Assembly (NCBI GenBank): GCA_030679255.1
Contig: JAUXTO010000022.1
Coordinates: forward strand, 915-64,914
Direction: 5' to 3'
Source of the DNA: Candidatus Gottesmanbacteria bacterium
GTDB lineage: Bacteria > Patescibacteriota > Microgenomatia > UBA10105 > UBA927
Length of the DNA: 64,000 bases
Part shown: in pieces, positions 1,596 to 21,651 of the stretch
Layout: every line of letters starts with the position of its first letter
Numbering within the stretch: position 1 is the stretch's first letter
Program-made: the position numbers and the translations under genes
The notes under the pieces: generated by a model
Database searches by the model: none
Told to the model about the DNA's origin: nothing
The model's input: only the letters and a program-made list of their open reading frames with translations

Positions 1596-1628
<33 letters not shown>

Positions 1629-2955: not shown

Positions 2956-2986
<31 letters not shown>

Positions 2987-6620: not shown

Positions 6621-6691
6621 GTCCCGATGCTGACCCCCGATTCTTATCGGAATTACAGCCGTCGTGGATCCCGCTTCGCGGGAGTAGTATT
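6621..6691. repeat. ~70-nt hairpin-forming repeat element, copy 1
   Basis: GTCCCGATGCTGACCCCCGATTCTTATCGGAATTACAGCCGTCGTGGATCCCGCTTCGCGGGAGTAGTATT, flanked by TTGGTAGTATT repeats. Confidence 0.8.
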
Positions 6692-6763
6692 AAATTCTCT
6701 CTCCTCCCTCCTCCTCCTTCTTCCTATTTTCTCCTATTTTCTCCTAGTTTCTCCTAGTTTCTC

Positions 6764-8596
6764 CTACCCTCTCTTCTCCCTCGCCATTTGCTCTTGCTTC
6801 GCTTGATCCTTTTTAACACCCGATTGTACTTTCAAGTAGTCTTCCATAGACGGCGGCCACTGACCGCTCTGCTCATAATAGCTTCGCAGTCCCTGATCCA
6901 TGCCTTCCGTCCACGCTTTATATTCACCTTGCCGACGACCCTTCTCTTCCATGCTATTTCGTAGCCCTTGTTCTTTTTGTATGCGCTCCTCATCTTCACG
7001 CATTTCAGCGATAGTCTGGACTGTCTTCCGGTATTTTTCAGGGACGAGATCCGGATTCTTTGCTGCTACCCGGACCCCTTTGTCGAGCACCTCCCCCACA
7101 GCTTTTGCATGCTCCGCGAGCCTACCTGACCCGATGTAATCTTCCACCTTCGCCGCGGCTACACCAAAAAACTCCGCCACTTTGGCCCCCAACCTCAAGC
7201 TGATATGCGCCGGCCCCACGCCTAATGCAATGCCTACACCCCCAACGCCGGGTACTAATGATTCGGCTACTCCTAAAGTAGGCAAATGCTTATCAATATA
7301 ATCATTAGGAATATTCTTTAAAGGAGTTTTCCAGTGTTTACCCATCTGTAATCTGTAATAAAAGTTTTGCAACCAATTAATATTGCTCTTGCCTATTTTG
7401 CCATCGATGACATTTTCCGTCTGCAAAGGATTTTGCAACCCCTTCCCCATCAAGACCAACCCCAATCCACTCAATGAAAAATCAACAACGGTTGAAGCAA
7501 TACCAAAGAATTTCCCCACCTTTCGCCACGTCTCCCCAGTCTTTTCAAACGCTGCGTACCGCTCTGTCTCTTTGATGTTCGCAAGGATATTTTTATGTGC
7601 GTTCACCCATGACTTCTCCACTCCCCCCGGCCCCACCCGTTCCCACCAGCCCGCCACCATCCGTTTCACCGCCCCCACCGCCGGATGTGTTGCTTCACCC
7701 TCTCCCCTTACAATCGGCTTGAACTCTTCCGGTTTTCCGACGCCTACATACTGGATATCGGTACTTTGCTCTCCCATAAATCCTTCTTTCTTCTTCAGTA
7801 TTATTGTACTGCCTCCCTGGATTGGATGCAGCATCCGTGTGCCGATCCCCGGGACGGTGAAGGTGAGGTCATCAATCAATGGTTCATGGATTCGATCGCT
7901 CGCCGACTGTTTGAGATACGCATCGTAATCCGACGTCGTTTTCATGCTGTAGCCCAGTCCCACCCGCCGCTTTGCTTCTGAGAGGTAACTTGACGCACAC
8001 GCAACGACATCAAACCCTAATTCACCCGCAAGCCGCCCAAGGACATGAAAGTCACCCCTTCCAATCGGTCCGATGTGGATATGCCGGCCCACCCGCAGAA
8101 GTTCACGAAACACTCCCTCCCTCTGTTCGGCCGGTATCTGATATGTGGACCACAGGGCCAAAACATGGTCAAACGATCCGTCGGCAAACGGTATCTTCCG
8201 TCCGTCATACTGCACAAATGTTTTATCCTTGACTCCCAGGAAGCTTTTTTGCAGCGCCCGCACTTTCGTCGTATCCCCACCAAACTTTTCGAGAAGCCGG
8301 CGATAAAGATCCAAACTAAGCGTCGCCCCATACCGCACCACGTCGTTTGCGCTAATGAGCGGTTCCTTGATGATATCCAAATTGACAACCGTCGATGGTA
8401 CACCCCGCTCCCCCAATTGCTGCTCCAAGTGCGTCAGTCCCGGCCCGAAATTGAGGACTGTTTCCCCGCGCAAAAGCTCCGCATCAAAGCCGAGTATGCG
8501 TTCATACGTTTTGAGCCCCCTGCCCGTAATAATCTCTCCCTCAAGGCTCTTCGGTTGTTGTGTTTGTAGTATTTTTGGGGATTCAATGGATTCCAT
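6764..8596 (-). CDS. Large hypothetical protein with a class-I SAM-methyltransferase-like N-terminal domain
   Basis: Motifs VLNFGPG, VVNLD, PFADGSFDHVLA; long C-terminal region of unknown function. Confidence 0.5.
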   Translation of the reverse strand: MESIESPKILQTQQPKSLEGEIITGRGLKTYERILGFDAELLRGETVLNFGPGLTHLEQQLGERGVPSTVVNLDIIKEPLISANDVVRYGATLSLDLYRRLLEKFGGDTTKVRALQKSFLGVKDKTFVQYDGRKIPFADGSFDHVLALWSTYQIPAEQREGVFRELLRVGRHIHIGPIGRGDFHVLGRLAGELGFDVVACASSYLSEAKRRVGLGYSMKTTSDYDAYLKQSASDRIHEPLIDDLTFTVPGIGTRMLHPIQGGSTIILKKKEGFMGEQSTDIQYVGVGKPEEFKPIVRGEGEATHPAVGAVKRMVAGWWERVGPGGVEKSWVNAHKNILANIKETERYAAFEKTGETWRKVGKFFGIASTVVDFSLSGLGLVLMGKGLQNPLQTENVIDGKIGKSNINWLQNFYYRLQMGKHWKTPLKNIPNDYIDKHLPTLGVAESLVPGVGGVGIALGVGPAHISLRLGAKVAEFFGVAAAKVEDYIGSGRLAEHAKAVGEVLDKGVRVAAKNPDLVPEKYRKTVQTIAEMREDEERIQKEQGLRNSMEEKGRRQGEYKAWTEGMDQGLRSYYEQSGQWPPSMEDYLKVQSGVKKDQAKQEQMAREKRG

Positions 8597-8652
8597 TATA
8601 TGTATATGAACCTTCCAGGTTACGTAGGTTTGAACATCCTACTTTTTGCTCA

Positions 8653-8940
8653 TTAATTGGGTATTACGTCATTCAACCCCGTACGTATTTTCGCGGTAGA
8701 AGCGCGGATCCGATCACTATCCGCAGGCGCCGCATCTCGATCAATGCTATCAAGCTCTTCATTAATATTGGATTTAAACGTCCCCGTCGCCGTGTTATAT
8801 TTCGCGTCATACTCGTCAATAATTTCCTCGAGTTTCACCCGGTCCCCACCCGTGATCGCATCAAAACCGGCCAGGATATCTATCTTCTCCTTGTCCGTAA
8901 ACAGCTTCGTCTCCTGTACTTTTTTTTTCAATGGATCCAT
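8653..8940 (-). CDS. Small helical protein, paralog family A
   Basis: 95 aa; pattern LF/LS-D-x-x-KI-x-IL...D...; related to 11626, 13023 and 18423. Confidence 0.6.
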   Translation of the reverse strand: MDPLKKKVQETKLFTDKEKIDILAGFDAITGGDRVKLEEIIDEYDAKYNTATGTFKSNINEELDSIDRDAAPADSDRIRASTAKIRTGLNDVIPN

Positions 8941-8994
8941 ATCGTTGTGTCATTCCGGCGAACGCCGGAATCCATCCTGATTACATAACCTTAC

Positions 8995-9050
8995 TGTAGT
9001 ATTTTTTCTTATTCGCTTATTCACTTATTCCATTATTCTCTTATTTGCTT
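8995..9050. repeat. TTATTCN / ATTATTC repeat array (intergenic)
   Basis: ttattcgcttattcacttattccattattctcttatttgcttattg; also at 26925-27000 and 35870-35960. Confidence 0.8.
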
Positions 9051-9688
9051 ATTGCCGCAGCGGCTTCCTCCCTCTTCGCCGCCAGCCCAAAAAATCCTTC
9101 AAACATATTGCGCAACCCTCCCACGATCGGTGGATTGAGACCCGGAACTTGTCCGAGGAACCAGTCTATTTTTGCCAAAGGTTGCAACTCTGTATCCATC
9201 TTTCTGATAAATTTACTGTATACCCAACCAGATAGCTCTACTCCCGCATAATATCCAGCCGCCGATCCGGCAAGCCCCCCACCAATAAATCCTGTATACA
9301 GACCGGCACCAAAACCTAAAACGGATGCAGGGATAGCTCCTGGCCCAGTCGAAGAAAATCCTGCAAGCCCGGCCAATCCGCCGATTACTCCCCCTGCAAG
9401 TCCCCCACCCACGGCTCCGCCAAGAGCCCCAAGCCCGGCGCCAAATCCCGCGGTTGCCGTACTTAATGATGTGAGCGCAATCCCATATGCGGTTTCTTTA
9501 AGCCCCGCCCGCCGGAGCACATCCGCGTTAAGCGTTTGGAGCTTGAGTCTGGCCTCCCGATCCGCCTCATTGATCCCATCACTCACTTTTTTGAGCTCAG
9601 TATTCCACCGCTCAAAAAACCGCTCAGCGAAGTTCTTCTTCTCCGCCCTCTCAGGTGTCATTACTGGCCTGTCCATCGTTTCTGTCAT
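9041..9688 (-). CDS. Glycine-zipper membrane protein (hypothetical)
   Basis: GGAVGGGLAGGVIGGLAGLAG GxxxG repeats; 215 aa. Confidence 0.55.
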   Translation of the reverse strand: MTETMDRPVMTPERAEKKNFAERFFERWNTELKKVSDGINEADREARLKLQTLNADVLRRAGLKETAYGIALTSLSTATAGFGAGLGALGGAVGGGLAGGVIGGLAGLAGFSSTGPGAIPASVLGFGAGLYTGFIGGGLAGSAAGYYAGVELSGWVYSKFIRKMDTELQPLAKIDWFLGQVPGLNPPIVGGLRNMFEGFFGLAAKREEAAAAISK

Positions 9689-9711
9689 AGGTAATACATC
9701 ACAAAAAAATT

Positions 9712-9918
9712 TTAAGACGAGATGCCTTTTTTATAATCCTCAAGAATCTGTCGATAACGATAATACTGAGCAATGTTCATAAGCATCCCCACGGGTTTTG
9801 AACGATGGACGACACACACCGGTTCGCCCAGCTCTTCAGCGACTTTTATGACTCCCAAAGGATCTTCCCGCAGGTCAGAAATGGATTTAATGGATTTTGG
9901 ATTAAGCATACATCTCAC
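9712..9918 (-). CDS. Phd/YefM-like antitoxin (orphan)
   Basis: 68 aa; ISDLRE...GEPV...SKPVGMLM pattern. Confidence 0.45.
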   Translation of the reverse strand: MRCMLNPKSIKSISDLREDPLGVIKVAEELGEPVCVVHRSKPVGMLMNIAQYYRYRQILEDYKKGISS

Positions 9919-9984
9919 CTCTATCTGAGATGAATATAGAGGTTTATCTCCTATTTGTCAATTTTTTCTCTTGTTTGATCATTG

Positions 9985-10060
9985 TTATATTTGGTCATTG
10001 GTCATTGTATGTTTGGTCATTGGTCATTATTGTTTGGTCATTGGGATTTGTGATTTGGAA
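9985..10060. repeat. TTGGTCATTGG / GGATTTG repeat array (intergenic); same family inserted in recF and yjeF
   Basis: ttggtcattggtcattgtatgtttggtcattggtcattattgtttggtcattgggatttgtgatttggaatttcc. Compare 61765-61805 and 62318-62360 (recF) and 60895-60945 (yjeF), all ending ...CAATGACCAA. Confidence 0.75.
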
Positions 10061-10150
10061 TTTCCTTGCCTTCCCCTTTCATCTCCCCTTTTTCTGTCAT
10101 ACAATGGATAGTGTATAGAAAAATAAGTTATTTATACAAGTTCAATCATC

Positions 10151-11554
10151 ATGAATAACGAAACAGCAGTTCATAATCTAGAAAGCAAAAAATTTGCCTC
10201 TGTCATCAAATCAATAGGAAATAATAATCTTGTTAATCTCAAGGTAATCGAACAAACCATAAGTGCGGCAAACGCATCACAGCTCCTGATTCTTAAACGG
10301 AAAAATGTTATTACCGATGAGGAGTATAGAGATCTCCGACAAAAACTCAGTGAAAAACAATCTGCAGAAGAAAAGAGCCGTATAGACGCTCTCAATAATA
10401 AAATGCACGGAAGCGATCAACAATCCAACACTCAACCTGAAAAAACAACAGAAAAAAAGATAGAACACGAAATTCAAAACGTTTCTTACACCGAATTAAG
10501 CACGATGCTAGGATCGGGCGTTATTTCTCTAGAACGATACGATGCTGAATTAAAACGTCGCAAAGATGATCCGATGACGCTGTCCATGGCAAACCCTCCT
10601 ACCGGCATTCCCGTCGAACGCCGCAACTACTCACCTACTAAAGCCAAAGATTTTATTACGCAAAATGTTCCACTCAGTCAACAAAAAGGACTCTTAGATG
10701 AATTGCAAAATTTTAAAAAAGAAGGCGAGTACTATAGCGTATCCATCAGAAAAGACAATAGAGGCTATGGCTTAGTACGCTTTGAACTCCCCAACCCCTG
10801 GACTTACGTCAAAAAAAACGCCGAACAATCCGTCACGCAATCGGTTCGTCATGAATTAGGCAAAGGGGGCAACCGTCTCATTAACCCCGACTACGTGCAC
10901 AATGAAATGATCAATCAATATAAACTCGTCCGCGATGCCCTCCCCGCGGGCACGACAACTCACAAACTATTGGAAAAAACCGATAAAATCGTCACAGTCG
11001 CCCTCACCGGCGCGGGACTCACTGTGGAAGCGGTCAATCTCTTGGTCAACGCCGTCCGCGGCGCGCTCCTCGAGTCACCTCAATTAAAATATAAAGTTGC
11101 CGCTCTCATCCCCGACGACCTGGTCCGCCAGGGAGCCACCGTAAATACACGGCTGCTTGGGAATAATTTGCGTACATTTATCCATAAAAAATATAATCTC
11201 CCCGACCGTCCCCGCCACACACCGGTCCTCGTCAACACCCTCGACCAAATCAAGCCAGAGCATTACCGCGCCCAGGATGCCCAAAAGGTCGGCATCACGA
11301 TGCGCGATCTGACCCGCGAGAATGCCATTAAATTTATTCATGAAAATGTTCCGGTAGAAAAGCAGGAAAGCGCCATCGAAACGATTAACCGCCTGCAGGG
11401 AAATCAATTTGGGGTTTCTATCATGGATTCCGGCTGGGTCCGGATCGATGCATCAGCACGTGAACCCAGGACATACGATAATCGCCCACAGTACGATAAT
11501 CGCCAAAAGTGGGTCGGCTCTTTTGATGCCTCAGTGGCCACCAAGATGCCCTAA
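10151..11554 (+). CDS. Hypothetical protein (467 aa)
   Basis: Long ORF with coding-like composition; no recognised motif. Confidence 0.55.
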   Translation: MNNETAVHNLESKKFASVIKSIGNNNLVNLKVIEQTISAANASQLLILKRKNVITDEEYRDLRQKLSEKQSAEEKSRIDALNNKMHGSDQQSNTQPEKTTEKKIEHEIQNVSYTELSTMLGSGVISLERYDAELKRRKDDPMTLSMANPPTGIPVERRNYSPTKAKDFITQNVPLSQQKGLLDELQNFKKEGEYYSVSIRKDNRGYGLVRFELPNPWTYVKKNAEQSVTQSVRHELGKGGNRLINPDYVHNEMINQYKLVRDALPAGTTTHKLLEKTDKIVTVALTGAGLTVEAVNLLVNAVRGALLESPQLKYKVAALIPDDLVRQGATVNTRLLGNNLRTFIHKKYNLPDRPRHTPVLVNTLDQIKPEHYRAQDAQKVGITMRDLTRENAIKFIHENVPVEKQESAIETINRLQGNQFGVSIMDSGWVRIDASAREPRTYDNRPQYDNRQKWVGSFDASVATKMP

Positions 11555-11580
11555 TTATCTTTCTGTTTATTTATTGCGAG

Positions 11581-11627
11581 TATTTGTAGTATTGGTAGTA
11601 TTTGAGATTGGTAGTATTGGTAGTATT
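11581..11627. repeat. TTGGTAGTATT tandem-repeat array (intergenic)
   Basis: tatttgtagtattggtagtatttgagattggtagtattggtagtatt. Other arrays: 6593-6620, 15911-15974, 21561-21583, 21651-21683, 24294-24333, 35564-35626 (inside trxB), 55566-55618, 62596-62650. Confidence 0.85.
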
Positions 11628-11904
11628 AATTTATTATTGTCTTGACCCCCAACCGTATCTTCTCCACCGCCTCCCGGACCGCTGGCGCGTTCCCGTCATC
11701 AGAAAGGATCCCTGCAAGCTCTTTATTCACCGCCGCCTGATACTTGGCCAACAATGCCTGATACTTCTCCTCATGCCGCGTTAAAACCTCGTCAAGCTTG
11801 GCGATCTCCTCCTCACTACACCCATCTACCTCCACCAGCAAATTAATTTTCTGCTGATCACTAAGAAGATGCGAGTGTTGTATTGTTTGTTTTATTGTAT
11901 TCAT
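11626..11904 (-). CDS. Small helical protein, paralog family A
   Basis: 92 aa; LLSDQQKINLLVEVDG...; C-terminal EKIRLGVKTI matches family A (AQIKTGVDAL / AKIRTGLNDV). Confidence 0.6.
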   Translation of the reverse strand: MNTIKQTIQHSHLLSDQQKINLLVEVDGCSEEEIAKLDEVLTRHEEKYQALLAKYQAAVNKELAGILSDDGNAPAVREAVEKIRLGVKTIIN

Positions 11905-12024
11905 AAAATCATCCCCGCGCCCTCATTGTCATCCCCGCGCGAGGCCGGGGATCCAGTGTCCAAAGCCTGGCTTTAGCCTTGGAAAGCCTGGCTTTGTCTC
12001 TTCAAAGCCACTTCCTTGGCGCTT

Positions 12025-12996
12025 TCACTCATCTTTCCCCATCTTCTCATACAACTCCAAAAACCTCTCCTGCTTATCTCTCTTGGCAGCTCCCATGGTC
12101 TTCGCCTTTTTCGCCTCCTCCAAGAGCGCATCCACTTTCATGGCTCCCCCGCTTTTGCGTGCACTCCGTATCTCCCCGACCGCCCGTATGTATGCCGACA
12201 CTCCTTCGACCACCTGCGCCGCTCCAAAAAGCGTCACGGGATTAGAAAAGTCTGCGACTTTCCCTGCCGCGAAACCAAATTCTGACAACCTACTCTTCTT
12301 CTGAGTTGTTTCAGAATTATCGGATTGAGCCCCGATCTTTTTCTCTTCAACGCTATTTGCTCTAAACTCCCTTATTACCTTTTCAGATGTATCTTTTGTT
12401 TCATTGACCTCTATTAAATAGGATGCATCTTTTGGCTTATTCAATCCCTTTCTCGCTGCCCAATCAAGTACGTTTACCATGGCCGAAGAAACTAAATATG
12501 AAGAAGGTATTTGCGGTAATCCCTTTCCGATAAATTCATTCCCTTTTTGATACATGACGAATGTTGCGCTATCAGCAATTACTTCCTGCGCGAGGGAACC
12601 ACCAAAGAGCTTCTTTACTTGCGCAATGCTTGCTTCATTTCCGACCGGTATCTTAGACAACACCATGTTGAGCGCCATTCCGAGTGCTGCTTCAGATAGA
12701 TACTCCAGTCCTCCGCCTATGGCGCCCGCGGTCAACGCTTTTCCAACTCTCGTCGACGCTATCTCCCCCAATTCCTTTTTCGCTGCAAGATTCGCTTTGC
12801 TCAAGTCTCCCAAAAATTCCATCGTCGCCCCGACGACACCCGCTACCCGCGCCTCCTCAGGCCTCCTCCTCTCCGAATCCCCAATCTTCACCACATCAAC
12901 TCCCGGGACCGTCTTCATCTCCGGTTTCCCCGCCTCCACCACTGGTAATTGTCCTATAGATTGCTCTCCCATATTTTCAGCCTTGAAGGGTCTCAC
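12025..12996 (-). CDS. Hypothetical protein (323 aa)
   Basis: Long ORF in the island; no known motif. Confidence 0.55.
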   Translation of the reverse strand: MRPFKAENMGEQSIGQLPVVEAGKPEMKTVPGVDVVKIGDSERRRPEEARVAGVVGATMEFLGDLSKANLAAKKELGEIASTRVGKALTAGAIGGGLEYLSEAALGMALNMVLSKIPVGNEASIAQVKKLFGGSLAQEVIADSATFVMYQKGNEFIGKGLPQIPSSYLVSSAMVNVLDWAARKGLNKPKDASYLIEVNETKDTSEKVIREFRANSVEEKKIGAQSDNSETTQKKSRLSEFGFAAGKVADFSNPVTLFGAAQVVEGVSAYIRAVGEIRSARKSGGAMKVDALLEEAKKAKTMGAAKRDKQERFLELYEKMGKDE

Positions 12997-13022
12997 CTTT
13001 TAAGGCTAGATTTCACCAAGCC

Positions 13023-13316
13023 TCACACTATCGGCTTGCCTACCCCGACGTAGACCTTATCAAGCTCACTGAGCTTTTCCGTTTTTGATGCTTCAGGCTT
13101 CCAAGTTTTGACCGTCTCCATGATCTCCCCAACATTCCCACGTATGCCCGTTTCATTCTTCAAAATGAAGTCATGTTCTTCTGCCAAAAACCGCCCCAAC
13201 TCCTCCACATCCCCACCACTCATGGCGTTCACGCGATCTAACAAAATAAGCTTATCCTCGTTGGGGAGAATAAAGCTATTGCGGATAAGTTTCACCAATG
13301 CAATTTTTTTGTTCAT
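13023..13316 (-). CDS. Small helical protein, paralog family A
   Basis: 97 aa; ILPNEDKLILLDRVNAMSGGDVEEL; 3-nt gap to the 13319..14269 gene. Confidence 0.6.
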   Translation of the reverse strand: MNKKIALVKLIRNSFILPNEDKLILLDRVNAMSGGDVEELGRFLAEEHDFILKNETGIRGNVGEIMETVKTWKPEASKTEKLSELDKVYVGVGKPIV

Positions 13317-13318
13317 AA

Positions 13319-14269
13319 TTACCCCGCAACCGGCTGAGCAAACACAGCCGCCGCTTGTGCCACATCTGGCTTTTTCACTTCCTTGATTTTTCCATCAAAC
13401 CGTTTCATCACGACTTTCCCCATATCGAGTACTAAATTACGGGCAGTGATCTGCCATTCATTATAATTGTGAGCAAGTTGCCAAACTGCCGGCACAATGT
13501 TTGCTCCAGGTAACACAAACTCCGCAAATCCAGCAACTAACGCGAGTTTTTGCGGCACATCAGGATACGGATCAATTTTATGCATCAGATGAAGTCCTCC
13601 ACTGATCACCACATCTTTCCCTAATTGTTTTTTCGCTCCGGAGTATGTCCCTTGGGCCTCTTTCATCATATCGTTTATTGCCCGCTCAGTTCGTTTTGCA
13701 TTTGGCCCTGTTACCCCGACCTTCTCTAGACGAGCAACTATTTTTGCTGTGTTGCCAACTTCCTCTATTTCTTTCCGCGCTCCCCACGCTTCTTGTGCTG
13801 AATGAATCGGATCCGCCGCCAAATGAATAGGGTTTCGTGGTATAGCTTTTAACGTCTCCCACAATTTACCCCTCGCCGCAGTTTGAACTACCTTTGCTGC
13901 TGTTTTTTCCGCTGCCGCCGCACCTCTTAACCCCCACGCAGCTTTCTCAGCCGTTAACGCCACCTTTCCTGCTTCTGCAGCTGCTCCGAATTTTACGAGA
14001 GTCCCTGTTGTACCAAGAAGTGGAACCAAAGAAAGTCCGCCCGCAGCTGTTGCTTTTGCGTTTTTCCAGGTAATCTCTCCAAATGTTTTTCCATGTGTTT
14101 TCATCACATTCCACATCTCCTGCACCATCCCCACTTCTCCCGCCGCGTCGGCGGTAGATTGTGCAGGCTCCTTCATATCCAGCTCAATTTGTGTGCGTGC
14201 TTCCGCCACCTCTTGCTTTAGAGTGTCCGCCTCGGCAATTTTCTCCATTTCTGATACCTGCTCTTCCAT
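13319..14269 (-). CDS. Hypothetical protein (316 aa), Ala/Gly-rich
   Basis: Long ORF; weak resemblance to 30317..31180 (GTTGTL segment, C-terminal ...AG). Confidence 0.55.
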   Translation of the reverse strand: MEEQVSEMEKIAEADTLKQEVAEARTQIELDMKEPAQSTADAAGEVGMVQEMWNVMKTHGKTFGEITWKNAKATAAGGLSLVPLLGTTGTLVKFGAAAEAGKVALTAEKAAWGLRGAAAAEKTAAKVVQTAARGKLWETLKAIPRNPIHLAADPIHSAQEAWGARKEIEEVGNTAKIVARLEKVGVTGPNAKRTERAINDMMKEAQGTYSGAKKQLGKDVVISGGLHLMHKIDPYPDVPQKLALVAGFAEFVLPGANIVPAVWQLAHNYNEWQITARNLVLDMGKVVMKRFDGKIKEVKKPDVAQAAAVFAQPVAG

Positions 14270-14291
14270 ATATTCGTTTATTGGTAGTATT

Positions 14292-14360
14292 GTCCCGCTG
14301 CTGACCCCCGATCTTTATCGGATTACAGCAGCGTGGATCCCGCTTCGCGGGAGCAGTATT
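14292..14360. repeat. ~70-nt hairpin-forming repeat element, copy 2
   Basis: GTCCCGCTGCTG...CAGCAGCGTGGATCCCGCTTCGCGGGAGCAGTATT; abuts the stop of 14360..14866. Confidence 0.8.
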
Positions 14361-14866
14361 TATTTCTTGGTCTCCGCCCTCGCCATCCCGACGAGGATCT
14401 GATGCGAATTCTCAAGGGTCGCCTTGGCCGGAGCCGGCCGCCGTTCTCCGAGTATCCCATCGACGATCCCATCTACAGTCCGCACTCCCATCTGCACCGG
14501 CCCGGACTCCACCACTTTTTCCGCCATAAAGCCGACGACTTTTTCTTTTAATTGACTGAACTTTTCTGGAAAAAATGTGACAAAAGACATTCCGGGTATT
14601 CTTTTCGCAAACTCAAGCACTGTTGCAAAAGCAGCTTGCGGTACTTTCACCGCATCCACGGCGAGTCCTATCGCGTCCTTTGCCCGCCCCTCTGGAAGGG
14701 CGGCATTGACCCGCTCGCAATTTCTCGCCTGCTCCCGTACTACAGGATTTTCATTGATGTACCCGTTCAGGACCCCCCGCACTGCTTCCCGCACGCCCGA
14801 TTTTGCCCGTTCAGGATTGAGGGGTGTCTGTTCTTGAGGAGATAATCCTTCCCGGTCTTCTGCCAT
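14360..14866 (-). CDS. Hypothetical protein (168 aa)
   Basis: ORF; the stop abuts copy 2 of the hairpin element. Confidence 0.5.
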   Translation of the reverse strand: MAEDREGLSPQEQTPLNPERAKSGVREAVRGVLNGYINENPVVREQARNCERVNAALPEGRAKDAIGLAVDAVKVPQAAFATVLEFAKRIPGMSFVTFFPEKFSQLKEKVVGFMAEKVVESGPVQMGVRTVDGIVDGILGERRPAPAKATLENSHQILVGMARAETKK

Positions 14867-15003
14867 ACTACCAGCCTACGGCAAAAGAGACCTATCGGTC
14901 AATAGTTCGCATAAAAAAAGCTAAGCTTTGATCTTCAAAAAGCTTAGCTTTGTAAAACAGCGTAGGATACCTAGATCACGTAGGAAACGTAGATTCTGAA
15001 GTC

Positions 15004-15810
15004 TTACGAAGTCGTTACCGCCTCACCCGTCGTCGTATTCACCATAGCAGATGCCATCGCCAAATCCGGCACAACATAGATCATCGTCGTTTCGCGGGTC
15101 AACGTCGGTTCTTTCTGATCTTTCGGCTTATTGGCTTTCACAAACTCATCTTGCGTGCCGGCTACCACAGCCTTGTATGCACGATACCAATCCATGACGG
15201 CCATCCGCGCCTCATCTGCCCCCAGCGCCGTCACCGGATTGATGTAGTCAAGGAGGGATTTTTTCTGTGTCGTTTCCTCTGTCACGATAATCGTTGTTTT
15301 AGGTGTTGATATTTCATCACTCGAAGGAACTTGTTCATCAATGTGAGCTGCTGCTAAAACTGCTGATGTCGCAGCCGCCGATGCATTATCAATAGCAGTC
15401 TTGGTTTCAGTTTTCGACTTTCTCCAAGATTTTATTCTTCCCCCTACCCCTTCCGCGCCGGACACGAGGATCGTTCCAAGGGTCGATGTGGTCAAATGAC
15501 GCAGTTTAAGCTTTGGAAGCGGCTCGTTCAGTTGTTTATTTGCCACAGCATAAACGACGGCCACGACGCCATCTTCCAATAATTCTTGAAATAATGTAGG
15601 GAGCGTGTCAAATTTTATCGAAGGAAATTTTTCTTGTATTAATGCTGTACTACCGCTGGAAATCATTTCCAGCGCGACACCGGTGACTGTTATCGCAGCA
15701 GCTCCACCCACGCGAGTGAGTGGTTTAGCGCCATCTACATGAATTTTACCGGCGAGTTGGTGTGCACTCAATACGTCTTGAAGAACGGATCGTTCTGGGC
15801 TTTTTGCCAT
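15004..15810 (-). CDS. Hypothetical protein (268 aa)
   Basis: ORF in the island. Confidence 0.5.
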   Translation of the reverse strand: MAKSPERSVLQDVLSAHQLAGKIHVDGAKPLTRVGGAAAITVTGVALEMISSGSTALIQEKFPSIKFDTLPTLFQELLEDGVVAVVYAVANKQLNEPLPKLKLRHLTTSTLGTILVSGAEGVGGRIKSWRKSKTETKTAIDNASAAATSAVLAAAHIDEQVPSSDEISTPKTTIIVTEETTQKKSLLDYINPVTALGADEARMAVMDWYRAYKAVVAGTQDEFVKANKPKDQKEPTLTRETTMIYVVPDLAMASAMVNTTTGEAVTTS

Positions 15811-15925
15811 AATGCAGGGGACTATATCACACTATGGGCCATCCTGTCAAACCAAACCCCTCCTACCCTCTCCTACCTTCTCCTAATTCCCCTTATCTTC
15901 TTCTATTGGACTGTTGGTAATATTT

Positions 15926-18391
15926 CTACTTGGTAGTATTGGTAGTATTTGAAATTTGTTTATTGGTAGTATTGTAATCCCCCTCCCCCACCAAGACCTG
16001 CCCGTCAACGAGTGGCGGCTTCTTATTAAGCTCGCTAAAGTCCACCACGCGCTCGGCTATCGTCTCAAATACCGGATCATGGGTGATGGCCACGACCGTC
16101 ATACCGGGCCGTTTCCTCCGCAATTCTTGTATAATTTCCATGACCTGATGCCCTGTTTGTACATCCAAATTGCTCGTCGGTTCATCCAAAAATAGTACCT
16201 TCGGATCTTTGATGAGCGCACGGGCAATCCCGATGAGCCTCTTCTCTCCACCGGAAAAGTGTGCGTGCTTCTCGTCAAGCTTGTCGCTAAACTTCCCCAT
16301 CCCGAGTTCATTGAGGGTATCCCGTAGCCGTTCGTCCGAAATCTTTCTACGTGACCAAAGCAAGAGATTCTCCCGTATCGTCATGTGGGGCAAGATGTGG
16401 GGCTCCTGATTGGCATACCCGATCACCCGCTGGAATGCCTGATCCCCATATTGCTTTATGCCGTCTATCGGTACTCCTCCATAGGTCACCGCTCCGCTTT
16501 CTTTCCCATAAAGCCCCATGAGGTGACGCAGAAGTGTCGTCTTCCCGCTTCCCTTCTCACCTTTGATGGTCAGAAACGTCCCCTGTGGAATATCCAGAGA
16601 AACGTCGTGAAGAATATTCTTATACGATACATTTTTGACCGTTATATCCAGATTTTTCAAAGAATCCACGCCCACCCGCGCTATTTCTTTCGGCCCGTCC
16701 GGTCGGTCAAGGGCATCCTGCGATCCCAAGAATTCTTCAAATTTGCGGGCTTCCGTCACTGCGGTTCTCAAGGTCCCGGTATAAAGCCCAACGAGCGAGG
16801 CGATATTCCCTTTGAGAATTTCCTGATTGCGCGAGGATGACAGCGCGCTTTCCAGTATCTCACTGCCTTTGATGATGTAGTCAGGAGGTCCCATCGTTTT
16901 TATATTTCCTAGCCTCGATGGTACTCGAGCAACATTGTTCAACGATTGTTTCGCGCCCCGGACTCTATCTTTTGGCCACCCCGCTATATTCTGTAGTATT
17001 CCTTGACGAGCTTCCGACGGCACTACATCATCAGATCCTCCATTTTGTATGAGTCGCCAAAGAGCGCTCGCCACAGGCGTCCCGTAGTCAAACGCCCGCG
17101 TCACCCGGACGTGTCCCTTTTCGCTTGCCGTCAGCGCCCGCTCTTTGCCCCTCAGCACGTCATCACGGTTATCAAATGCATCCCGAAGTTCCTTTGCCGC
17201 TGTCTCCACATCATCGGTTTTGACGACTTCTGCAGACCCGAGGATCCCTACGATGGTTGACTCTATGGCTGCCCGCTTTTTCCCTTCTTCCTTTCCCCAC
17301 TTTATCGACTCATCAATATGCTCTTTAGCAGCACTCAAGATGAACGGTACACGAAGCAAACTTAACACCCCTCCAACCATATCCATCCGTGCAAATTGAG
17401 ATGCGACGGACATGCCTGTGGCGATGAGCCGCGGCACGATGTCGATATGATGATGCGCAATGAGGGTCGTCACTGCCCAACGCCCGCGTTCAATCTTATT
17501 GATAAGCTCCCCAGCAGAAGCATCATGAAGAAACTCAAAATCCCGCATGAGGATCGAGTCGGAAATGCGCCGGTTAAGGGATCGGTTCACCTCTCCCATC
17601 CCTTCCCGGAACTTCTCATGCGCTTTTCCCTGCAGTTGCCCGAGAGGAATGGCCGAAAGCGAAAAAAGCAGTGGGAGTTGATCCATGATCAAACGCTGAG
17701 CGTAAGGAATTTTTAACCCATCAATTTTACCTGGATTTAATCCGTTAGCCAGTGCCTTCTGGGTTTCATGGCGTAATGCAGCGTTACTCAATGGGACTTC
17801 GGTAATTACAGGAATGCCAGCATCAAGCGCAACCATTGAATTTTGTTCTTGAATATTTTTCCTCATATCCTCCCGACGTATCCTATTCACCCAATGCCAC
17901 GCCACGTACTGCGGCCCGATGCCGTTAATGGCGGCTGTCGCGATGAGCGCTCCCTGCCAGACGCGCAATTTCGGTCCGGCGTTGGTAGAGAATCCATATT
18001 TATCCGATACATCCTTGACGACCGACCGGTACTCGGGCAGCCATTGGAGAAATTCCGAGAATCCGTTTTGGGTTTTGGCGTCTATCCCCCCTGGTTCCCG
18101 TACCGCGCGGGACGTTTGACCAAAGAAGCTCTTGGCATTCTTCCGCCATCCTTTATCTTCTTTCGGAGTGAATGTAATGCCCTGCGTTGCTAAATCGCGG
18201 GCAACAGAATCCAGAAGGGTGTTGGATTGATCCGCTTCAATCGCCTTGCCCGCCATCATTGCTTCGGCGACTGCTTTGGACGCATCCAATGACTCTTGGG
18301 ATATTTCGGTCTTTGGCCCCTCTTCCTGCGGTTTTTCCGGATTGTTTGGTAGTGGGACTACCTCAGGAGTTTTACGTTCTAATTCGCTCAT
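15926..18391 (-). CDS. ABC exporter-type fusion protein (membrane domain + ATP-binding cassette)
   Basis: Walker A GEKGSGKTT, signature FSGGEKRLIGIARAL, Walker B VLFLDEPTSNLD, H-loop ITHD. The N-terminal half has hydrophobic segments and an MsbA-like coupling motif ILMRDFEFLHDASAGELINKIERG. The C-terminal tail YNTTNKQISNTTNTTK is encoded by the TTGGTAGTATT repeat array. Confidence 0.8.
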   Translation of the reverse strand: MSELERKTPEVVPLPNNPEKPQEEGPKTEISQESLDASKAVAEAMMAGKAIEADQSNTLLDSVARDLATQGITFTPKEDKGWRKNAKSFFGQTSRAVREPGGIDAKTQNGFSEFLQWLPEYRSVVKDVSDKYGFSTNAGPKLRVWQGALIATAAINGIGPQYVAWHWVNRIRREDMRKNIQEQNSMVALDAGIPVITEVPLSNAALRHETQKALANGLNPGKIDGLKIPYAQRLIMDQLPLLFSLSAIPLGQLQGKAHEKFREGMGEVNRSLNRRISDSILMRDFEFLHDASAGELINKIERGRWAVTTLIAHHHIDIVPRLIATGMSVASQFARMDMVGGVLSLLRVPFILSAAKEHIDESIKWGKEEGKKRAAIESTIVGILGSAEVVKTDDVETAAKELRDAFDNRDDVLRGKERALTASEKGHVRVTRAFDYGTPVASALWRLIQNGGSDDVVPSEARQGILQNIAGWPKDRVRGAKQSLNNVARVPSRLGNIKTMGPPDYIIKGSEILESALSSSRNQEILKGNIASLVGLYTGTLRTAVTEARKFEEFLGSQDALDRPDGPKEIARVGVDSLKNLDITVKNVSYKNILHDVSLDIPQGTFLTIKGEKGSGKTTLLRHLMGLYGKESGAVTYGGVPIDGIKQYGDQAFQRVIGYANQEPHILPHMTIRENLLLWSRRKISDERLRDTLNELGMGKFSDKLDEKHAHFSGGEKRLIGIARALIKDPKVLFLDEPTSNLDVQTGHQVMEIIQELRRKRPGMTVVAITHDPVFETIAERVVDFSELNKKPPLVDGQVLVGEGDYNTTNKQISNTTNTTK

Positions 18392-18422
18392 AGTGCTGAT
18401 ATGAGCATATCATAGATAGAAG

Positions 18423-18716
18423 TTATGCAGAAAGCAGGGCGTCGACGCCGGTTTTTATCTGCGCCGTGGCCGCCTGCATGCTGGGGACATCTTCTGGTTT
18501 TTGTTTTGCAACAACACCATCCAGCGTCTCATACACGGCTTTTTTATAATCAGCAACAGCCTGGGTATGTGCCGCATCAAACTCATCAATAATCTTTTCA
18601 AGCGCCTGTATATCCGCCTCCCCATACCCATCCACGGCAACTAAGATGGCAATCTTATCCTCATCACTGAGGAGTGTGGTATTTTTAATCTTCTGTTTTA
18701 AATCCTGCATATTCAT
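18423..18716 (-). CDS. Small helical protein, paralog family A
   Basis: 97 aa; LLSDEDKIAILVAVDG...; preceded by a GGAGG-containing TAGGAGA repeat leader. Confidence 0.6.
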   Translation of the reverse strand: MNMQDLKQKIKNTTLLSDEDKIAILVAVDGYGEADIQALEKIIDEFDAAHTQAVADYKKAVYETLDGVVAKQKPEDVPSMQAATAQIKTGVDALLSA

Positions 18717-18790
18717 TCCCTCCTAACTCCTCCTAATTTCTCATAACTTCTCCTCATATCCCTTACGCTCCCGTAGCTTCCCGTAATCTC
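18717..18790. promoter_or_regulatory. TAGGAGA-type (SD-like) pyrimidine/purine repeat leader upstream of the family A gene; the 25-mer is shared with the acylphosphatase leader (40680-40715)
   Basis: The RC reads GAGAAGTTATGAGAAATTAGGAGGAGTTAGGAGGG, placing GGAGG ~7 nt before the ATG at 18716. The identical CCTAATTTCTCATAACTTCTC block occurs upstream of 40678. Similar arrays at 6700-6780, 15858-15905, 20490-20560, 21490-21560, 45120-45180 and 49240-49280. Confidence 0.55.
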
Positions 18791-18826
18791 GCGTTAATTT
18801 GTCACTTTGTCACTTTGTTAATGAGT

Positions 18827-19600
18827 TTACCCTTTCCTCATCTCCCACAGCCCCTTCCCCACAGCCCGCATTCCAGCGACAGATAGAGGATTAAACACTT
18901 CATTAAGAATAATTCTCCCAACAAATCCTCTTAGACCAATATTACGTCCATCTAATAGCATATTCATACCAGAAAGTCCTACATTACTTATTACCCAGTC
19001 ATACCATTTAACAGGTGGCAAATTATTTTTTGTAGCTATTTTTTTATTATGAACGAGTCCTGCAGTTTCAAAACCAATTGTTTCTCCGATCTTAGCACCA
19101 ACGACTGCCCCGCCCGTGCTGCCAATCACAGGTCCCATTGATGATAGTTGTCGAGGGTCAAATTCAAAACCCATTTCTTTGAATCTGGAGGCATCATCAG
19201 AATCTATAATACCTTGTAGCCTGGAACGGCCAAAATCGCTCTGAATAATTGATGGTCCAAATAAGCTTCCCCCAATCCCACCGACTATTGCACCCACCAA
19301 TCCACCCCCGACCGTCCACTTCAACTGTGACTTCACCGTCTCCCACACCCCAATTTTCATCTGATTAAGTCCTGCATCGACAAGTTCTTTTCCATGAAGT
19401 GCTTTAAGTTGAGTGGCCGCCATCTCTCGCGCATCCAGTTGATCTTTTTCAAATTCCTTGCCTGCTCTCTGCATCACCTCGACCACCTGTTTTTGTTCAG
19501 GATTAAGCATCATCTCATCCTTCGGCAGCGCTTCTCTCGTTTGCTTGGACGCATCCCCTTGCCCGACAAATTGTGGATTACTCGGAGTATTTTCACTCAT
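18827..19600 (-). CDS. Glycine-rich (glycine-zipper) hypothetical protein
   Basis: VGGGLVGAIVGGIGGSLFG; 257 aa. Confidence 0.55.
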   Translation of the reverse strand: MSENTPSNPQFVGQGDASKQTREALPKDEMMLNPEQKQVVEVMQRAGKEFEKDQLDAREMAATQLKALHGKELVDAGLNQMKIGVWETVKSQLKWTVGGGLVGAIVGGIGGSLFGPSIIQSDFGRSRLQGIIDSDDASRFKEMGFEFDPRQLSSMGPVIGSTGGAVVGAKIGETIGFETAGLVHNKKIATKNNLPPVKWYDWVISNVGLSGMNMLLDGRNIGLRGFVGRIILNEVFNPLSVAGMRAVGKGLWEMRKG

Positions 19601-19785
19601 ATACTGACAGTATCACACACACGCACAATTATTCAATACACCCGCATCTTCCCTTTTCCCCTTGTCTCCTCCATCCTCCATCCTATGTCGTATATCCTAA
19701 GTCCTACGTCTCCCCGGCTTCTATCCTATCTCTTACGTCCTACGTCCTATGTCTTACCCCTCCTATCCTCTCCTATCTTCCCCCA

Positions 19786-19830
19786 TTGGATTATTGGATT
19801 ATTGGATAATTGGATTATTGGTAATATTGA
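19786..19830. repeat. TTATTGGA tandem-repeat array (intergenic)
   Basis: ttggattattggattattggataattggattattgg; also at 20612-20640 and 26540-26590. Confidence 0.8.
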
Positions 19831-20449
19831 TTCCCATCCTTCCCTCATATTTGAGCGTTCCCCGCTCTTTATATTTTTCGTCCGATGCCAATCCCTTGCG
19901 TACCATTTCTTCATTGACTAATTTCCCCTCGCTACACCCCTTTGGGTTTTCCAAGAGCCCCTCCCGCGATGAGTTATAAGTCAGGTGCATATAGTCAGCC
20001 GGCAAGAAGGAGGGCTCCCGCTCGCAGCCCACCCATATCCAGGCGAGGATCCGCCCATATTTATCATCCTGGTACCGGTCGTACTCCAGGTACACCCGCT
20101 TGCGGTCAATCAATTCATCAAGCGCCACGCGCGCCTCATCCCATTTCGCTTCTCCCCTATTGGGCGCATCGATCCCGATCATCCGGACCCCAACGCCATT
20201 TTTTAGTTCGAATGTATCTCCATCAACGACGTGAGTAACTATCCCGCTTGACGGAAAAATAGTTTTAATCTCCTGATAATTCTTGACACTTGCAAGCTTG
20301 GTAGGATTCCACCCCAACGCCATAGCGATGAGGATCCCGGGGATAAGCACCGCCGGCAGACCCAGCGCGATAAGCCGCTTCCTCGTCCACCGTGTTCCTT
20401 TCGTCGTGATGGAAGTCGAATGGTGCTTTGCCATATCTGTAGTATACAA
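19799..20449 (-). CDS. Membrane-anchored thermonuclease (staphylococcal nuclease/SNase homolog)
   Basis: N-terminal TM helix, then VVDGDTFEL...VRMIGIDAPN...YGRILAWIWV, typical of the SNase fold. Confidence 0.75.
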   Translation of the reverse strand: MYTTDMAKHHSTSITTKGTRWTRKRLIALGLPAVLIPGILIAMALGWNPTKLASVKNYQEIKTIFPSSGIVTHVVDGDTFELKNGVGVRMIGIDAPNRGEAKWDEARVALDELIDRKRVYLEYDRYQDDKYGRILAWIWVGCEREPSFLPADYMHLTYNSSREGLLENPKGCSEGKLVNEEMVRKGLASDEKYKERGTLKYEGRMGINITNNPIIQ

Positions 20450-20745
20450 AAATGGACTCCACCTATGGAGTCCTCATTTTTCCGTTTCTATCTTCCCGCC
20501 TCTTATCCTCTCCTACCTTCTCCTATCTTCTCCTATCTTCTCCTAATTCCCCTTATTCGCCCGCCTCGCCCCGCGTAGCATTGGCGAAGTGGGGTATCTT
20601 CCCATCTGTATTTTATTGGATTATTGGCTTATTGGATTATTGCTTTCCCCTCCCCCTCCCGTCCCCCTCCCCCACCCACACCTGCTCCACCGGCTTCCGA
20701 TTTATCTCCTTAAAGTCCACAATCCGCTCGGCAATCGCCTCATCA

Positions 20746-21096
20746 TTATTCTTTTTCCACATCCTGAAGAAGAGCAACAATTTGCTTTTGCAATACTGGA
20801 ATATCGATTTGCACCATATCCCATACTTTCTTTTCATCAACGGTAAAGTAGCCGTGAATGAGCGTATTACGCGCGTCCGTTATCGGCCTCCAGGGAATCT
20901 CCGGCGTTGCCAGCTTACGCTCATCGCTCACATTACGAGCAGCTTCACCGATAATTTCAAGCTGGCGGATGATCGCGCTTTGCAGTTTCTCGTCTCCGGC
21001 AAAATCCTTAATCGTCTTGCCGTCCGACCAGGCTACTATAAGCGCTATCGCGTCGCGGATGTGCAAAAAGTAGAGTGTGTCAGTTTTCCTGTCCAT
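20746..21096 (-). CDS. hepT: HepT-like toxin (DUF86, nucleotidyltransferase-substrate-binding), type II/VII TA
   Basis: RX4HXY motif RNTLIHGY; 116 aa; overlaps the upstream MntA gene. Confidence 0.75.
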   Translation of the reverse strand: MDRKTDTLYFLHIRDAIALIVAWSDGKTIKDFAGDEKLQSAIIRQLEIIGEAARNVSDERKLATPEIPWRPITDARNTLIHGYFTVDEKKVWDMVQIDIPVLQKQIVALLQDVEKE

Positions 21097-21388
21097 AGAG
21101 AGGTGTAACAGAAGACAAAATACTATCGCGAATATAGGGGGAAATATTTCGTTTGGTCACTAGGTCTACGTCTGCTCCAAGCAAATCCTTCAGGCGTAGT
21201 TTGAGTTCGATCATTCCCAACAACGTGGTTTTTGACTCCGGTAAAAATTCCACAACGATATCATAATCGCTCTCCGGCCTGTTATCTCCGAATGCCCGCG
21301 AGCCAAACAGCGCAGCATACGACACGCCGTACTGTCGAAATGCATCGCAAATCGCATCATACTGGGGAAGCACAATAGTCGTGTTCAT
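21080..21388 (-). CDS. mntA: MntA-like minimal nucleotidyltransferase antitoxin
   Basis: GSRAFGDNRPESDYDIVV (GS...DxD NTase motif); 102 aa. Confidence 0.75.
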   Translation of the reverse strand: MNTTIVLPQYDAICDAFRQYGVSYAALFGSRAFGDNRPESDYDIVVEFLPESKTTLLGMIELKLRLKDLLGADVDLVTKRNISPYIRDSILSSVTPLYGQEN

Positions 21389-21583
21389 GTCTCCATGGTA
21401 CTCCCTCTCTTATATGCTGGTCAATCCATTCTCCACCCTTCAGGTGGACTAGCTCCTGCCCGCAATGCTTTCAGCATGGCTGATGCAGGCGGGTCGCCCC
21501 TCTTCTTTTTCTCTCTTACCTTCTCCTACTTTCTCCTTTTTCCTCTTAATATCTCTTAATTTTTATTGGTAGTATTTGAGTAT

Positions 21584-21651
21584 TGTCCCGATGCTGTTTC
21601 CGATCTTTATCGGATTACAGCATCGTGGATCCCGCTTCGCGGGAGTAGTAT
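21584..21651. repeat. ~70-nt hairpin-forming repeat element, copy 3
   Basis: GTCCCGATGCTG...CAGCATCGTGGATCCCGCTTCGCGGGAGTAGTATT; overlaps the 3' end of ABC gene 21607..23901. Confidence 0.8.

Follow-up and report, generated by a model that had tools for sequence, protein, structure and literature searches.

Background

Small hairpin-forming repeats, such as repetitive extragenic palindromes (REPs), MITEs (miniature inverted-repeat transposable elements) and Rickettsia palindromic elements (RPEs), shape how genes are expressed and how proteins evolve in well-studied bacteria. RPEs are inserted in frame into protein genes and add peptide segments to them. In mitochondria, double-hairpin elements (DHEs), GC clusters and similar repeats of fungi and sponges (for example, in Allomyces) are patchy between relatives, occupy spacers as well as in-frame coding sites, and have no transposase. 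In the IS200/IS605 group and in palindrome-associated transposable elements (PATEs), hairpins at the ends replace the inverted repeats, target-site duplication is not obligatory, and behaviour is strand-specific and linked to the lagging-strand template. No such family of small hairpin repeats was found described for Patescibacteria, which are usually said to have streamlined genomes. Here we analyse a 64,000-nt stretch of a Candidatus Gottesmanbacteria contig (JAUXTO010000022.1, positions 915 to 64,914; hereafter, the window), which carries three copies of a hairpin element of about 62 nt. The element is probably one of a family of mobile DNA repeats, small and non-autonomous, that consist of two abutting hairpins and spread at the DNA level. 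Its behaviour is that of selfish mobile DNA, as opposed to a conserved regulatory RNA: close relatives differ in whether they carry it at a given gene junction, and it is also found in frame within essential genes.

We describe the element on the gene-sense strand, i.e., the minus, G-rich strand, on which the neighbouring genes are also encoded. Its two hairpins abut directly: hairpin B is constant and has 6 bp, and hairpin A is long and two-part, with a UCC/GGA base, so that the gene strand reads (C)UCCCGC-GAA-GCGGGA / UCC-A-CGAUGCUG-(3)-CCGAU-(4)-AUCGG-(3)-CAGCAUCG-GGA(C). Both hairpins are closed by TCC/GGA and are joined by GGATCC, which makes the family easy to recognise. Literature searches by sequence and by topic, including repeats of the candidate phyla radiation, returned no description of it. 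It appears to be an undescribed double-hairpin repeat family of Patescibacteria, kin by behaviour to the known small palindromic repeats, and it seems to work most like REPs and their REPIN doublets, mitochondrial DHEs and RPEs.

Comparison with described repeats

REPs and REPINs, like the element, are small, GC-rich, palindromic multi-copy repeats that are often paired and plausibly transcribed. In the account of PMC3733652, REPs lie mostly between unidirectional or convergent genes, downstream of open reading frames (ORFs), and sometimes within genes, including those of repair and replication; the GC-rich palindromes studied here are likewise downstream of ORFs in all window copies and in most copies of the relatives. 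Under the REP definition given there (PMC3733652), the element differs in having no unpaired GTAG/CGTC tag at the 5' foot of the palindrome. A GTAG does occur on the plus strand, either 3' of hairpin B (CGGGA-GTAG-TATT) or 5 nt upstream of hairpin A, and belongs to the unit of the TTGGTAGTATT tandem array that adjoins the element; it is missing in copies from four of the loci collected outside the window (L064, L069, L036 and L011). Other differences are that the two hairpins abut via GGATCC, instead of forming inverted REPs with a spacer, that the host belongs to the Patescibacteria lineage, and that about 0.6 Mb of sequence searched with approximate seeds, a weak test, had no match to a REP-associated tyrosine transposase (RAYT).

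The term and the concept of mitochondrial DHEs are found in PMC2800124. DHEs, like the element, consist entirely of two short, GC-rich hairpins side by side, and are found in spacers and in frame; only architecture and behaviour are shared, as DHE hosts are eukaryotic organelles and the sequences are unrelated. The element, in contrast, resides in a bacterial chromosome, combines one constant with one variable hairpin, and is accompanied by short tandem arrays. RPEs are longer (about 100-150 bp), occur only in Rickettsia and have no sequence relationship to the element, which has 30-64 nt and two discrete hairpins.

The label of "MITE-like", given to the element in the first-pass annotation, is apt insofar as it is short, non-coding, multi-copy, polymorphic for presence and absence, and able to alter gene ends. 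It is not a classical MITE, however: its only inverted ends are the 5-bp TCCCG/CGGGA, which are part of the two hairpin stems, it lacks long terminal inverted repeats that match an insertion sequence, a fixed-length duplication of its target site cannot be demonstrated, and its orientation is strongly one-sided. Single-strand transposition of the IS200/IS605 type is the mechanism that the element appears to resemble most. The end hairpins and the strand-biased orientation are compatible with it, though not specific to it; on the other hand, no conserved 4-5-nt target abuts the left end, where the flanks vary (...ACTAC, ...ACTGC, ...AGTAA, ...TTATC, ...AAATC), the approximate TnpA seeds, again a weak test, gave no match, and the element is much smaller than known PATEs.

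One more likeness concerns hairpin B alone. The DNA mini-hairpin d(GCGAAGC) is extraordinarily stable, with a melting temperature of 76.5 C, and is known from single-strand initiation sites; GCGAAGC occurs at the phage G4 origin and the related CCGAAGG in ssiA (PMC13037366). Hairpin B contains its exact core on the gene-sense strand, CGCGAAGCG (PMC13037366). The described examples are single functional sites in phage and plasmid origins, whereas here the same core is half of a dispersed, patchy repeat.

Three copies in the window

The three copies are all in one orientation, on the minus strand, and their cores lie at 6621-6684 (copy 1, 64 nt), 14292-14353 (copy 2, 62 nt) and 21585-21645 (copy 3, 61 nt). 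Hairpin B spans 6669-6683, 14338-14352 and 21630-21644, and hairpin A spans 6622-6668, 14293-14337 and 21586-21629 in copies 1, 2 and 3, respectively. A covariance model derived from 11 copies found these three and no others within the window, with scores of 90.5 bits for copy 1 (match 6614-6691), 91.6 bits for copy 2 and 99.7 bits for copy 3. The 19-mer GGATCCCGCTTCGCGGGAG has exactly three occurrences, at 6666, 14335 and 21627, against 0.02 expected by chance, a number reached in none of 100 shuffles, and the 5' block TAGTATTGTCCCGMTGCTG likewise occurs three times. Aligned on the gene strand, the copies are near-identical over about 62 nt, and their flanks differ except for a short AATACT motif. 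Copy 2 begins 7 nt past the stop codon of ORF 14360..14866 and lies 22 nt ahead of the ATG of ORF 13319..14269.

The first-pass annotation had reported the three copies at these places, with copy 2 next to a stop codon, and in this it was right: the copies are real and co-oriented, and each contains the exact 19-mer. The limits of the copies needed adjustment, as copy 3 had been started one base early and the ends took in the flanking TAGTATT.

Fold and compensatory changes

Hairpin B reads TCCCGC-TTC-GCGGGA on the plus strand and TCCCGC-GAA-GCGGGA on the minus strand. Hairpin A has an outer stem, CGATGCTG/CAGCATCG, which runs on into TCC/GGA past a 1-nt bulge, and an inner stem, CCGAT/ATCGG. 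Both stems of hairpin A are as originally proposed; the hairpin that had been given as CCCGC/GCGGG is in reality the 6-bp TCCCGC/GCGGGA. The minimum free energy of the minus strand is -29.7, -37.1 and -35.6 kcal/mol in copies 1, 2 and 3 (z-scores against shuffles of -3.8, -5.8 and -7.4), and the fold has an ensemble frequency of 0.47-0.57 in minus-strand RNA versus 0.08-0.21 in the plus strand. On the gene strand, extra G.U pairs lengthen the inner stem in copies 1 and 2. The outer stem of copy 1 has a mismatch and a bulge (a 2x1 internal loop), a trait of its subtype; that of copy 2 has a compensatory replacement of A-U by C-G, so the A>C/T>G double change given in the first-pass annotation is genuine.

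Covariation was studied in 15 distinct full-length copies from 11 sources, i.e., the three window copies and 12 from related metagenome-assembled genomes (MAGs). Standard pairs fill 97.6% of the pair cells, compared to only about 30-49% in controls with slid partners. Four pairs are changed on both sides (A-U to C-G; C-G to U-A, twice; G-C to A-U; and, in the inner stem, C-G to U-A), and the covariation and pairing values were reached in none of 500 column shuffles. All conserved nucleotides are in stems, and the loops vary freely. The pairing of the element is maintained by compensatory changes, and the structure survives the check on additional copies. The claim of selection on secondary structure holds in that further copies covary and keep their pairing, but the compensatory changes do not point to an RNA in particular. 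Wobble pairs are approximately balanced between the strands (G.U on the minus strand is about as frequent as A.C on the minus strand, i.e., G.U on the plus strand), and for this reason are uninformative as to which strand is folded.

Presence and absence at orthologous junctions

Syntenic relatives, with 67-87% amino-acid identity to the window, were compared at the same gene junctions, and six orthologous intergenic sites (A-F) turned out to be polymorphic, with the element in one Gottesmanbacteria relative and none in another. At site A, the 3' end of the second ABC paralog, the window has copy 3, and L009 has an empty site with near-identical flanks and three array units; the covariance model has no match at this site in L064. 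Site B, the junction of the genes for a 168-aa and a 316-aa protein, is occupied by copy 2 in the window, by a different, copy-1-like subtype in L064, L065 and L066, and is empty in L067, L068, L069, L070 and L074.

The remaining sites are empty in the window and filled elsewhere. Site C, the minus-strand spacer 18716..18827, has neither the element nor a AATACTACCAA array in the window, and both the element (2776-2851) and array units in L009. At site D (11583..11627, minus strand, after the 92-aa gene 11626..11904) and at site E (15914..15973, minus strand, at the 3' end of the ABC paralog 15926..18391), the window has the AATACTACCAA array only, and the element is found in L069 (2748-2824) and in L064 (8421-8496), respectively. 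At site F, in an ABC 3' fragment at 20.6 kb, the window has a different array and L064 has the element, at 5958. Loci L070-L076, which together cover about 40 kb of distinct syntenic sequence and come from two additional relatives, have no copy.

The element is not a conserved part of an operon. So patchy a distribution does not sit well with a dedicated regulatory RNA; it is what a mobile or otherwise unstable repeat would give, and the polymorphism at six sites agrees with the mobile-DNA behaviour suggested at the outset. Insertion at gene 3' ends, which was part of the same suggestion, proved too specific: the window copies lie in or beside AATACTACCAA arrays between genes, and relatives have copies at other types of junction and inside genes.

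In L064, the public call of the ortholog of the 316-aa protein (10001-11020, 339 aa) begins inside the hairpin element, and the additional N-terminal segment looks like an annotation artefact of the repeat.

Copies inside coding sequences

In the ABC-ATPase ORF 21607..23901 (minus strand), the last 16 codons and the stop codon come from copy 3. The resulting tail, ...NNQILLPRSGIHDAVIR*, takes the place of ...NKQILPISNTTNKN* in the element-free L009 ortholog and of ...NKQISNTTNTTK* in the paralog, in accord with the replacement of the C-terminal tail that had been noticed from the window alone.

Short forms of the element are found in uninterrupted reading frames of conserved proteins, in both orientations. 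In leucyl-tRNA synthetase (LeuRS, L020), the frame reads ...LDF[SGEAGSRFAGD]EPF...KMSKS, and comparison with solved structures places the insertion in a variable domain. Others are in the N-terminus of UvrA (L017), in an RpoC-like protein (L030 and L007) and in the C-terminal region of an FtsZ-like protein (L048). In GatB of L041, which comes from a close relative of the window genome (its CAYHFH01 contigs are syntenic with the window), a short form together with array units lies in a 14-residue stretch that corresponds to a gap in the solved GatB of T. maritima. The family tolerates translation when it is in frame. It is dynamic among close relatives, and it rewrites protein ends and loops, including those of GatB, LeuRS and UvrA.

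Family members outside the window

We scanned one genome per species, 1.2e12 positions in total, for the exact 19-mer, and found 51 loci, compared to about 4 expected (1.2e12 / 4^19); seven of them contain full-length homologs (L009, L011, L012, L014, L019, L036 and L040). A scan of metagenome contigs with a narrower query, the 19-mer followed by TAGTATT, gave two loci, of which L063 is full-length and L062 is cut off. Four more copies, three in L064 and one in L069, were not selected by the 19-mer at all and were reached on syntenic contigs via a neighbouring protein; three of these retain the B stem, one of them with the loop GAG, and the fourth has a broken pair.

At most other loci, hairpin B is directly preceded by a TCC-NNN-loop-NNN-GGA hairpin, the middle three pairs of which covary as a block (GGC/GCC, GCC/GGC, TGC/GCA, CGC/GCG). 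In the short forms, the whole stem of this first hairpin covaries: TCCGGC/GCCGGA, TCCGCC/GGCGGA, TCCTGC/GCAGGA, TCCCGC/GCGGGA. Its apex may be as small as 3 nt, in the 30-nt short forms, or may consist of an AT-rich loop of about 26 nt, or of an extension of about 40 nt, as in the long form of the window. Hairpin B can vary too, since in L048 both stems are TCCGCC/GGCGGA.

Contigs of independent assemblies break inside the element (L001 and L062), as expected of a multi-copy repeat; in practical terms, the family both ends contigs and makes gene calls begin too early, with false N-terminal extensions. The viral contig collection does not contain the exact 19-mer, blastn against plasmids and phages gave no match to the element, and a degenerate hairpin-A pattern gave only chance matches in coding DNA. 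An origin from phages or plasmids was rejected.

The 15-nt hairpin B is also set in quite different repeat architectures (L004, L028, L044, L049 and L051, and also L024, L035, L042 and L047): in MAGs labelled as Ignavibacteria and Zixibacteria it is nested within an outer GGTTCGGGAATT/AATTCCCGAACC stem, and in MAGs labelled as Gaiellales it is one of three hairpins per unit. A hairpin TCCCGC-CTAC/CTTC-GCGGGA stands directly ahead of ATGACA at L064 9357, L067 4089 and L070 15152, in intergenic position in L064 and L067 and within a gene in L070 (15128-15466, just upstream of the ATG called as the start); this is perhaps a distinct, conserved hairpin with a regulatory role that shares the stem of hairpin B. 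Occurrences in other phyla (Lentisphaeria, Omnitrophota, Ignavibacteria) are putative and taken from record titles, at least two of which are wrong. The "uncultured Gammaproteobacteria" titles of CAZLDC01 (L009, L014, L069) and CAYHFH01 (L006, L012, L040, L041, L066) were rejected as taxonomy, as these contigs share synteny and 75-87% amino-acid identity with the window; on this basis, both are Gottesmanbacteria relatives.

Mobile DNA, RNA structure or host DNA site

If the element is mobile DNA, as we consider probable, its most likely route of spread would be via folded single-stranded DNA exposed at replication forks, where a putative enzyme encoded elsewhere would recognise the folded strand at the TCC/GGA bases of the hairpins; hairpin-driven template switching or gene conversion could serve as an alternative route. 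The only demands on hairpin A are pairing and closure by TCC/GGA, and hairpin B is constant. Effects on the host would be by-products, namely a stable double hairpin at the 3' ends of upstream transcripts, possibly acting as a barrier to 3'-exonucleases or in termination, and the rewriting of protein C-termini or loops. Several observations weigh against this explanation. Of 12 long-form copies, about 11 run in the same direction as the flanking genes (the exception, in L036, is antisense to both neighbours), and copies lie just past stop codons and ahead of the next promoter, as would also fit a selected structure of RNA 3' ends. No transposase was seen among the 30 window ORFs scanned, and phmmer with three approximate Y1/RAYT seeds (IS200, IS608 and E. 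coli RAYT), a weak test, gave no match among 4124 open frames in about 0.6 Mb of the window and the loci. There is no consistent target-site duplication: most long-form copies have direct repeats of 6-8 nt on either side, but these are set in arrays of that very motif, and none are seen around the short forms inside genes. The repeats match at 8/8 positions in five long-form copies (AATACTAC-type) and in L069 (CAAATTAA), at 6-7/8 in four copies, and at 5/8 or fewer in five; a clean duplication could not be derived from the empty site of L009, as that junction is not a simple insertion plus duplication. At single sites, loss by deletion instead of gain by insertion may have occurred, and the exact 19-mer query accounts in part for the apparent invariance of hairpin B across phyla.

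A cis-acting mRNA structure, be it a terminator or attenuator without a U-tract, an intercistronic processing site, or a 3'-end stabiliser that shields the upstream cistron, as has been shown for some REPs, is an unlikely alternative. Copies sit between a stop codon, which they directly follow, and the next gene or promoter, and are co-oriented with genes; both facts would speak for it, as would the stems kept by compensatory changes, the better-defined fold of the minus strand and the G.U pairs that extend the inner stem in copies 1 and 2. But the same junctions are empty in close relatives, and one of them has two subtypes; short forms are translated within essential genes in both orientations; wobble pairs favour neither strand, and the L036 copy runs against its neighbours. 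Nor does the gene strand have a U-run: the element is followed there by CAAUACUACCAA, so an intrinsic terminator was rejected, and a terminator scan gave only weak antisense matches, on the plus strand, at 21630 and 14342. Rfam 15 at the gathering threshold detected nothing but 23S rRNA and tRNA in the window and eight loci. A secondary, exapted effect at the RNA level would be compatible with mobile DNA as the main explanation. That the element is a stand-alone small RNA gene or a self-cleaving ribozyme is hardly credible, even though its structure, of about 62 nt, is compact and stable and covaries. No Rfam family is matched even at E<=10 (on 21500-21720, the only hit is a 12-bit chance match to a viral hairpin), no dedicated promoter-like site is seen, conserved nucleotides are confined to stems and the loops are free, ORF ends overlap the element and it is translated, and the apex of hairpin A shrinks to 3 nt in the short forms. 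A tRNA or tmRNA origin was rejected as well, with tRNA-Ala at 4456-4531 as the only ARAGORN prediction.

The GC skew of the window is negative on the plus strand even across the plus-strand gene cluster at 40.7-48 kb, where the AT skew flips; because it stays negative across these genes, replication and not transcription accounts for it. Following the usual rule, the lagging-strand template is the G-rich strand, here the minus strand. The strand with GCGAAGC is the G-rich one in 10 of 12 loci and, given that the skew is independent of gene orientation, would probably serve as this template. These facts, together with the presence in hairpin B of GCGAAGC, which is found at sites of single-strand priming (PMC13037366), and with associated arrays that are strictly strand-specific and positionally conserved, would suit a DNA site used by the host, such as a lagging-strand priming signal, a fork or recombination signal, or a binding platform formed with the flanking arrays. 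We regard such a site as improbable: the element is patchy in close relatives and missing from the 40 kb of syntenic DNA of two of them, it is inserted within coding sequences, its spacing is irregular (7.3-7.7 kb in the window, three copies within 4 kb in L064), and no conserved protein partner was identified. The G-rich GCGAAGC strand also fits, without proving it, a mechanism that would act on folded single-stranded DNA at forks, as in IS200/IS605.

A broader proposal is more doubtful. The element could represent a widespread, undescribed class of single-stranded DNA hairpin parasites in Patescibacteria, and possibly in Lentisphaeria, Omnitrophota and Ignavibacteria, in which d(GCGAAGC) with a TCC/GGA partner is mobilised at forks by an unrecognised enzyme family and which, along with the strand-locked arrays, would be a major source of new peptide insertions in proteins of these reduced genomes that are otherwise highly conserved; we put this forward tentatively. 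Genomes with and without the element provide a handle for finding the mobilising enzyme, and the element offers a test of a role for the ultra-stable GCGAAGC DNA mini-hairpin in transposition or priming.

Tandem arrays around the element

The repeat unit TTGGTAGTATT, or AATACTACCAA on the minus strand, has 31 matches with at most one mismatch in the window, all on the plus strand and in about ten intergenic clusters with a spacing of 9 nt or 16-17 nt. The hairpin element had been described as embedded in these repeats, and units do adjoin all three copies; in this lineage it lies in or next to such units, nearly always in a single orientation. They are not special to it, as it is found in only three of the clusters. 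In gene sense, two AATACTACCAA units (6594..6620, minus strand) are directly downstream of copy 1, with the partial unit TAGTATT (6685-6691) on the other side. One AATACTACCAA unit (14281..14291, minus strand) abuts copy 2, and CAGTATT (14354-14360) is on the opposite side. Copy 3 is abutted by one array unit and a partial unit (21566..21584, minus strand; TTGGTAGTATTTGAGTATT on the plus strand), and beyond it a partial and a full unit (21646..21669, minus strand; TAGTATTTGATTATTGGTAGTATT on the plus strand) are translated within the tail of the ABC protein.

Six relatives keep the site B array at the same position, upstream of the 316-aa gene, with a unit that differs by lineage; the common grammar is AAT-N4/5-CCAAT, and the spacers end in TCA. 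The unit is AATACTACCAAT in the window (14270-14291) and L074 (9925-10000), AATTATCCAAT in L064 (9945-9975) and L070 (9935-10000), AATAAGCCAAT in L067 (9950-10000), and AATCCGACCAAT in L069 (40-90). The arrays are probably older than the element and independent of it, because the AATACTACCAA arrays of L074 occupy the same sites as those of the window, and L074 has no hairpin element; the element would then lodge in or beside units of the AATACT type. Alternatively, the AATACTACCAA unit may travel along with the element; at site B in L064, the unit after the element is not of the local array type.

About 70 distinct short tandem arrays (96 rows of TRF output), with periods of 7-10 nt and mostly intergenic, are found across the window, for example at 6722-6766, 9008-9053, 19785-19821, 26543-26585, 28672-28704 and 61428-61461. 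Their unit families include CTCCTANNTT, ATTGGATT, CTTATTCN, GACTTTATA, CTGACGA, TTGGTCA and TTGGTAGTA. The orientation of arrays follows the DNA strand and not transcription: CTCCTA occurs 34 times on the plus strand and three times as TAGGAG, and stays on the plus strand even within the plus-strand gene cluster at 40.7-46 kb (arrays 40690-40722 and 45124-45159), as in the arrays compared outside of it (6722-6766, 15856-15885, 20500-20545).

Some arrays are in frame. The trxB gene (ORF 34844..35866) has two, at 35555-35625 and 35006-35036, which read ...ILPISNTTKPNTTNTTN... and ...KSQKSKVES... and are both gaps relative to the solved TrxB structure. Heptamer or octamer arrays are also in frame in GDH (33473-33502, 33926-33954), DNA ligase (55858, 56558, 57058), RecF (61769, 61904, 62333) and the intein protein (51662, 51725, 53460), and give peptides such as VVSRQSSVVS, SGIRNQESG and KSQIPNPN. 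They resemble the amino-acid tandem repeats reported in Borg elements, although here the setting is a Gottesmanbacteria chromosome. The arrays are a second, and possibly a more interesting, phenomenon.

Other features of the window

Two more hairpin sequences of the window deserve mention. At 21441-21497 there is an unrelated, hairpin-rich insertion of 56 nt (TCCACC-CTTCA-GGTGGA and a longer hairpin), absent from the near-identical L009 ortholog; it is single-copy in the window, and its first hairpin recurs in L067 at 1498-1523 and 8310-8331. The spacer between tRNA and 23S rRNA genes contains, at 4404-4421, the hairpin TCCCGC-TTA-GCGGGA, with the same stem as hairpin B. The 23S rRNA gene itself (1062-4081, minus strand) is preceded by tRNA-Ala (4459-4531, minus strand) and is followed just downstream by an ORF for a LAGLIDADG endonuclease (485-1003, minus strand); there is no 16S gene in the window.

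Sigma-70-like promoters are recognised on the minus strand at 15850-15821 and 21424-21395 (TTGACA-18-TATAGT with TG; TTGACC-18-TACCAT), and in L064 at about 8520-8550. They end a few bases ahead of start codons, and this spacing suggests that the mRNAs behind them may be leaderless or near-leaderless.

The window also codes for AbiE and Fic toxin-antitoxin modules, two ABC-ATPase paralogs, an ATP-dependent ligase, RecF, GDH and TrxB. An 882-aa ORF (51024-53672, minus strand) combines an intein splicing domain with a LAGLIDADG_3 domain. Finally, at 40755-48423 there are four or five paralogous plus-strand genes that are near-identical in promoter and 5' region and conserved at their 3' ends (repeat families D3, D7, D9, D10 and D13), one of which encodes a Fic-domain protein.

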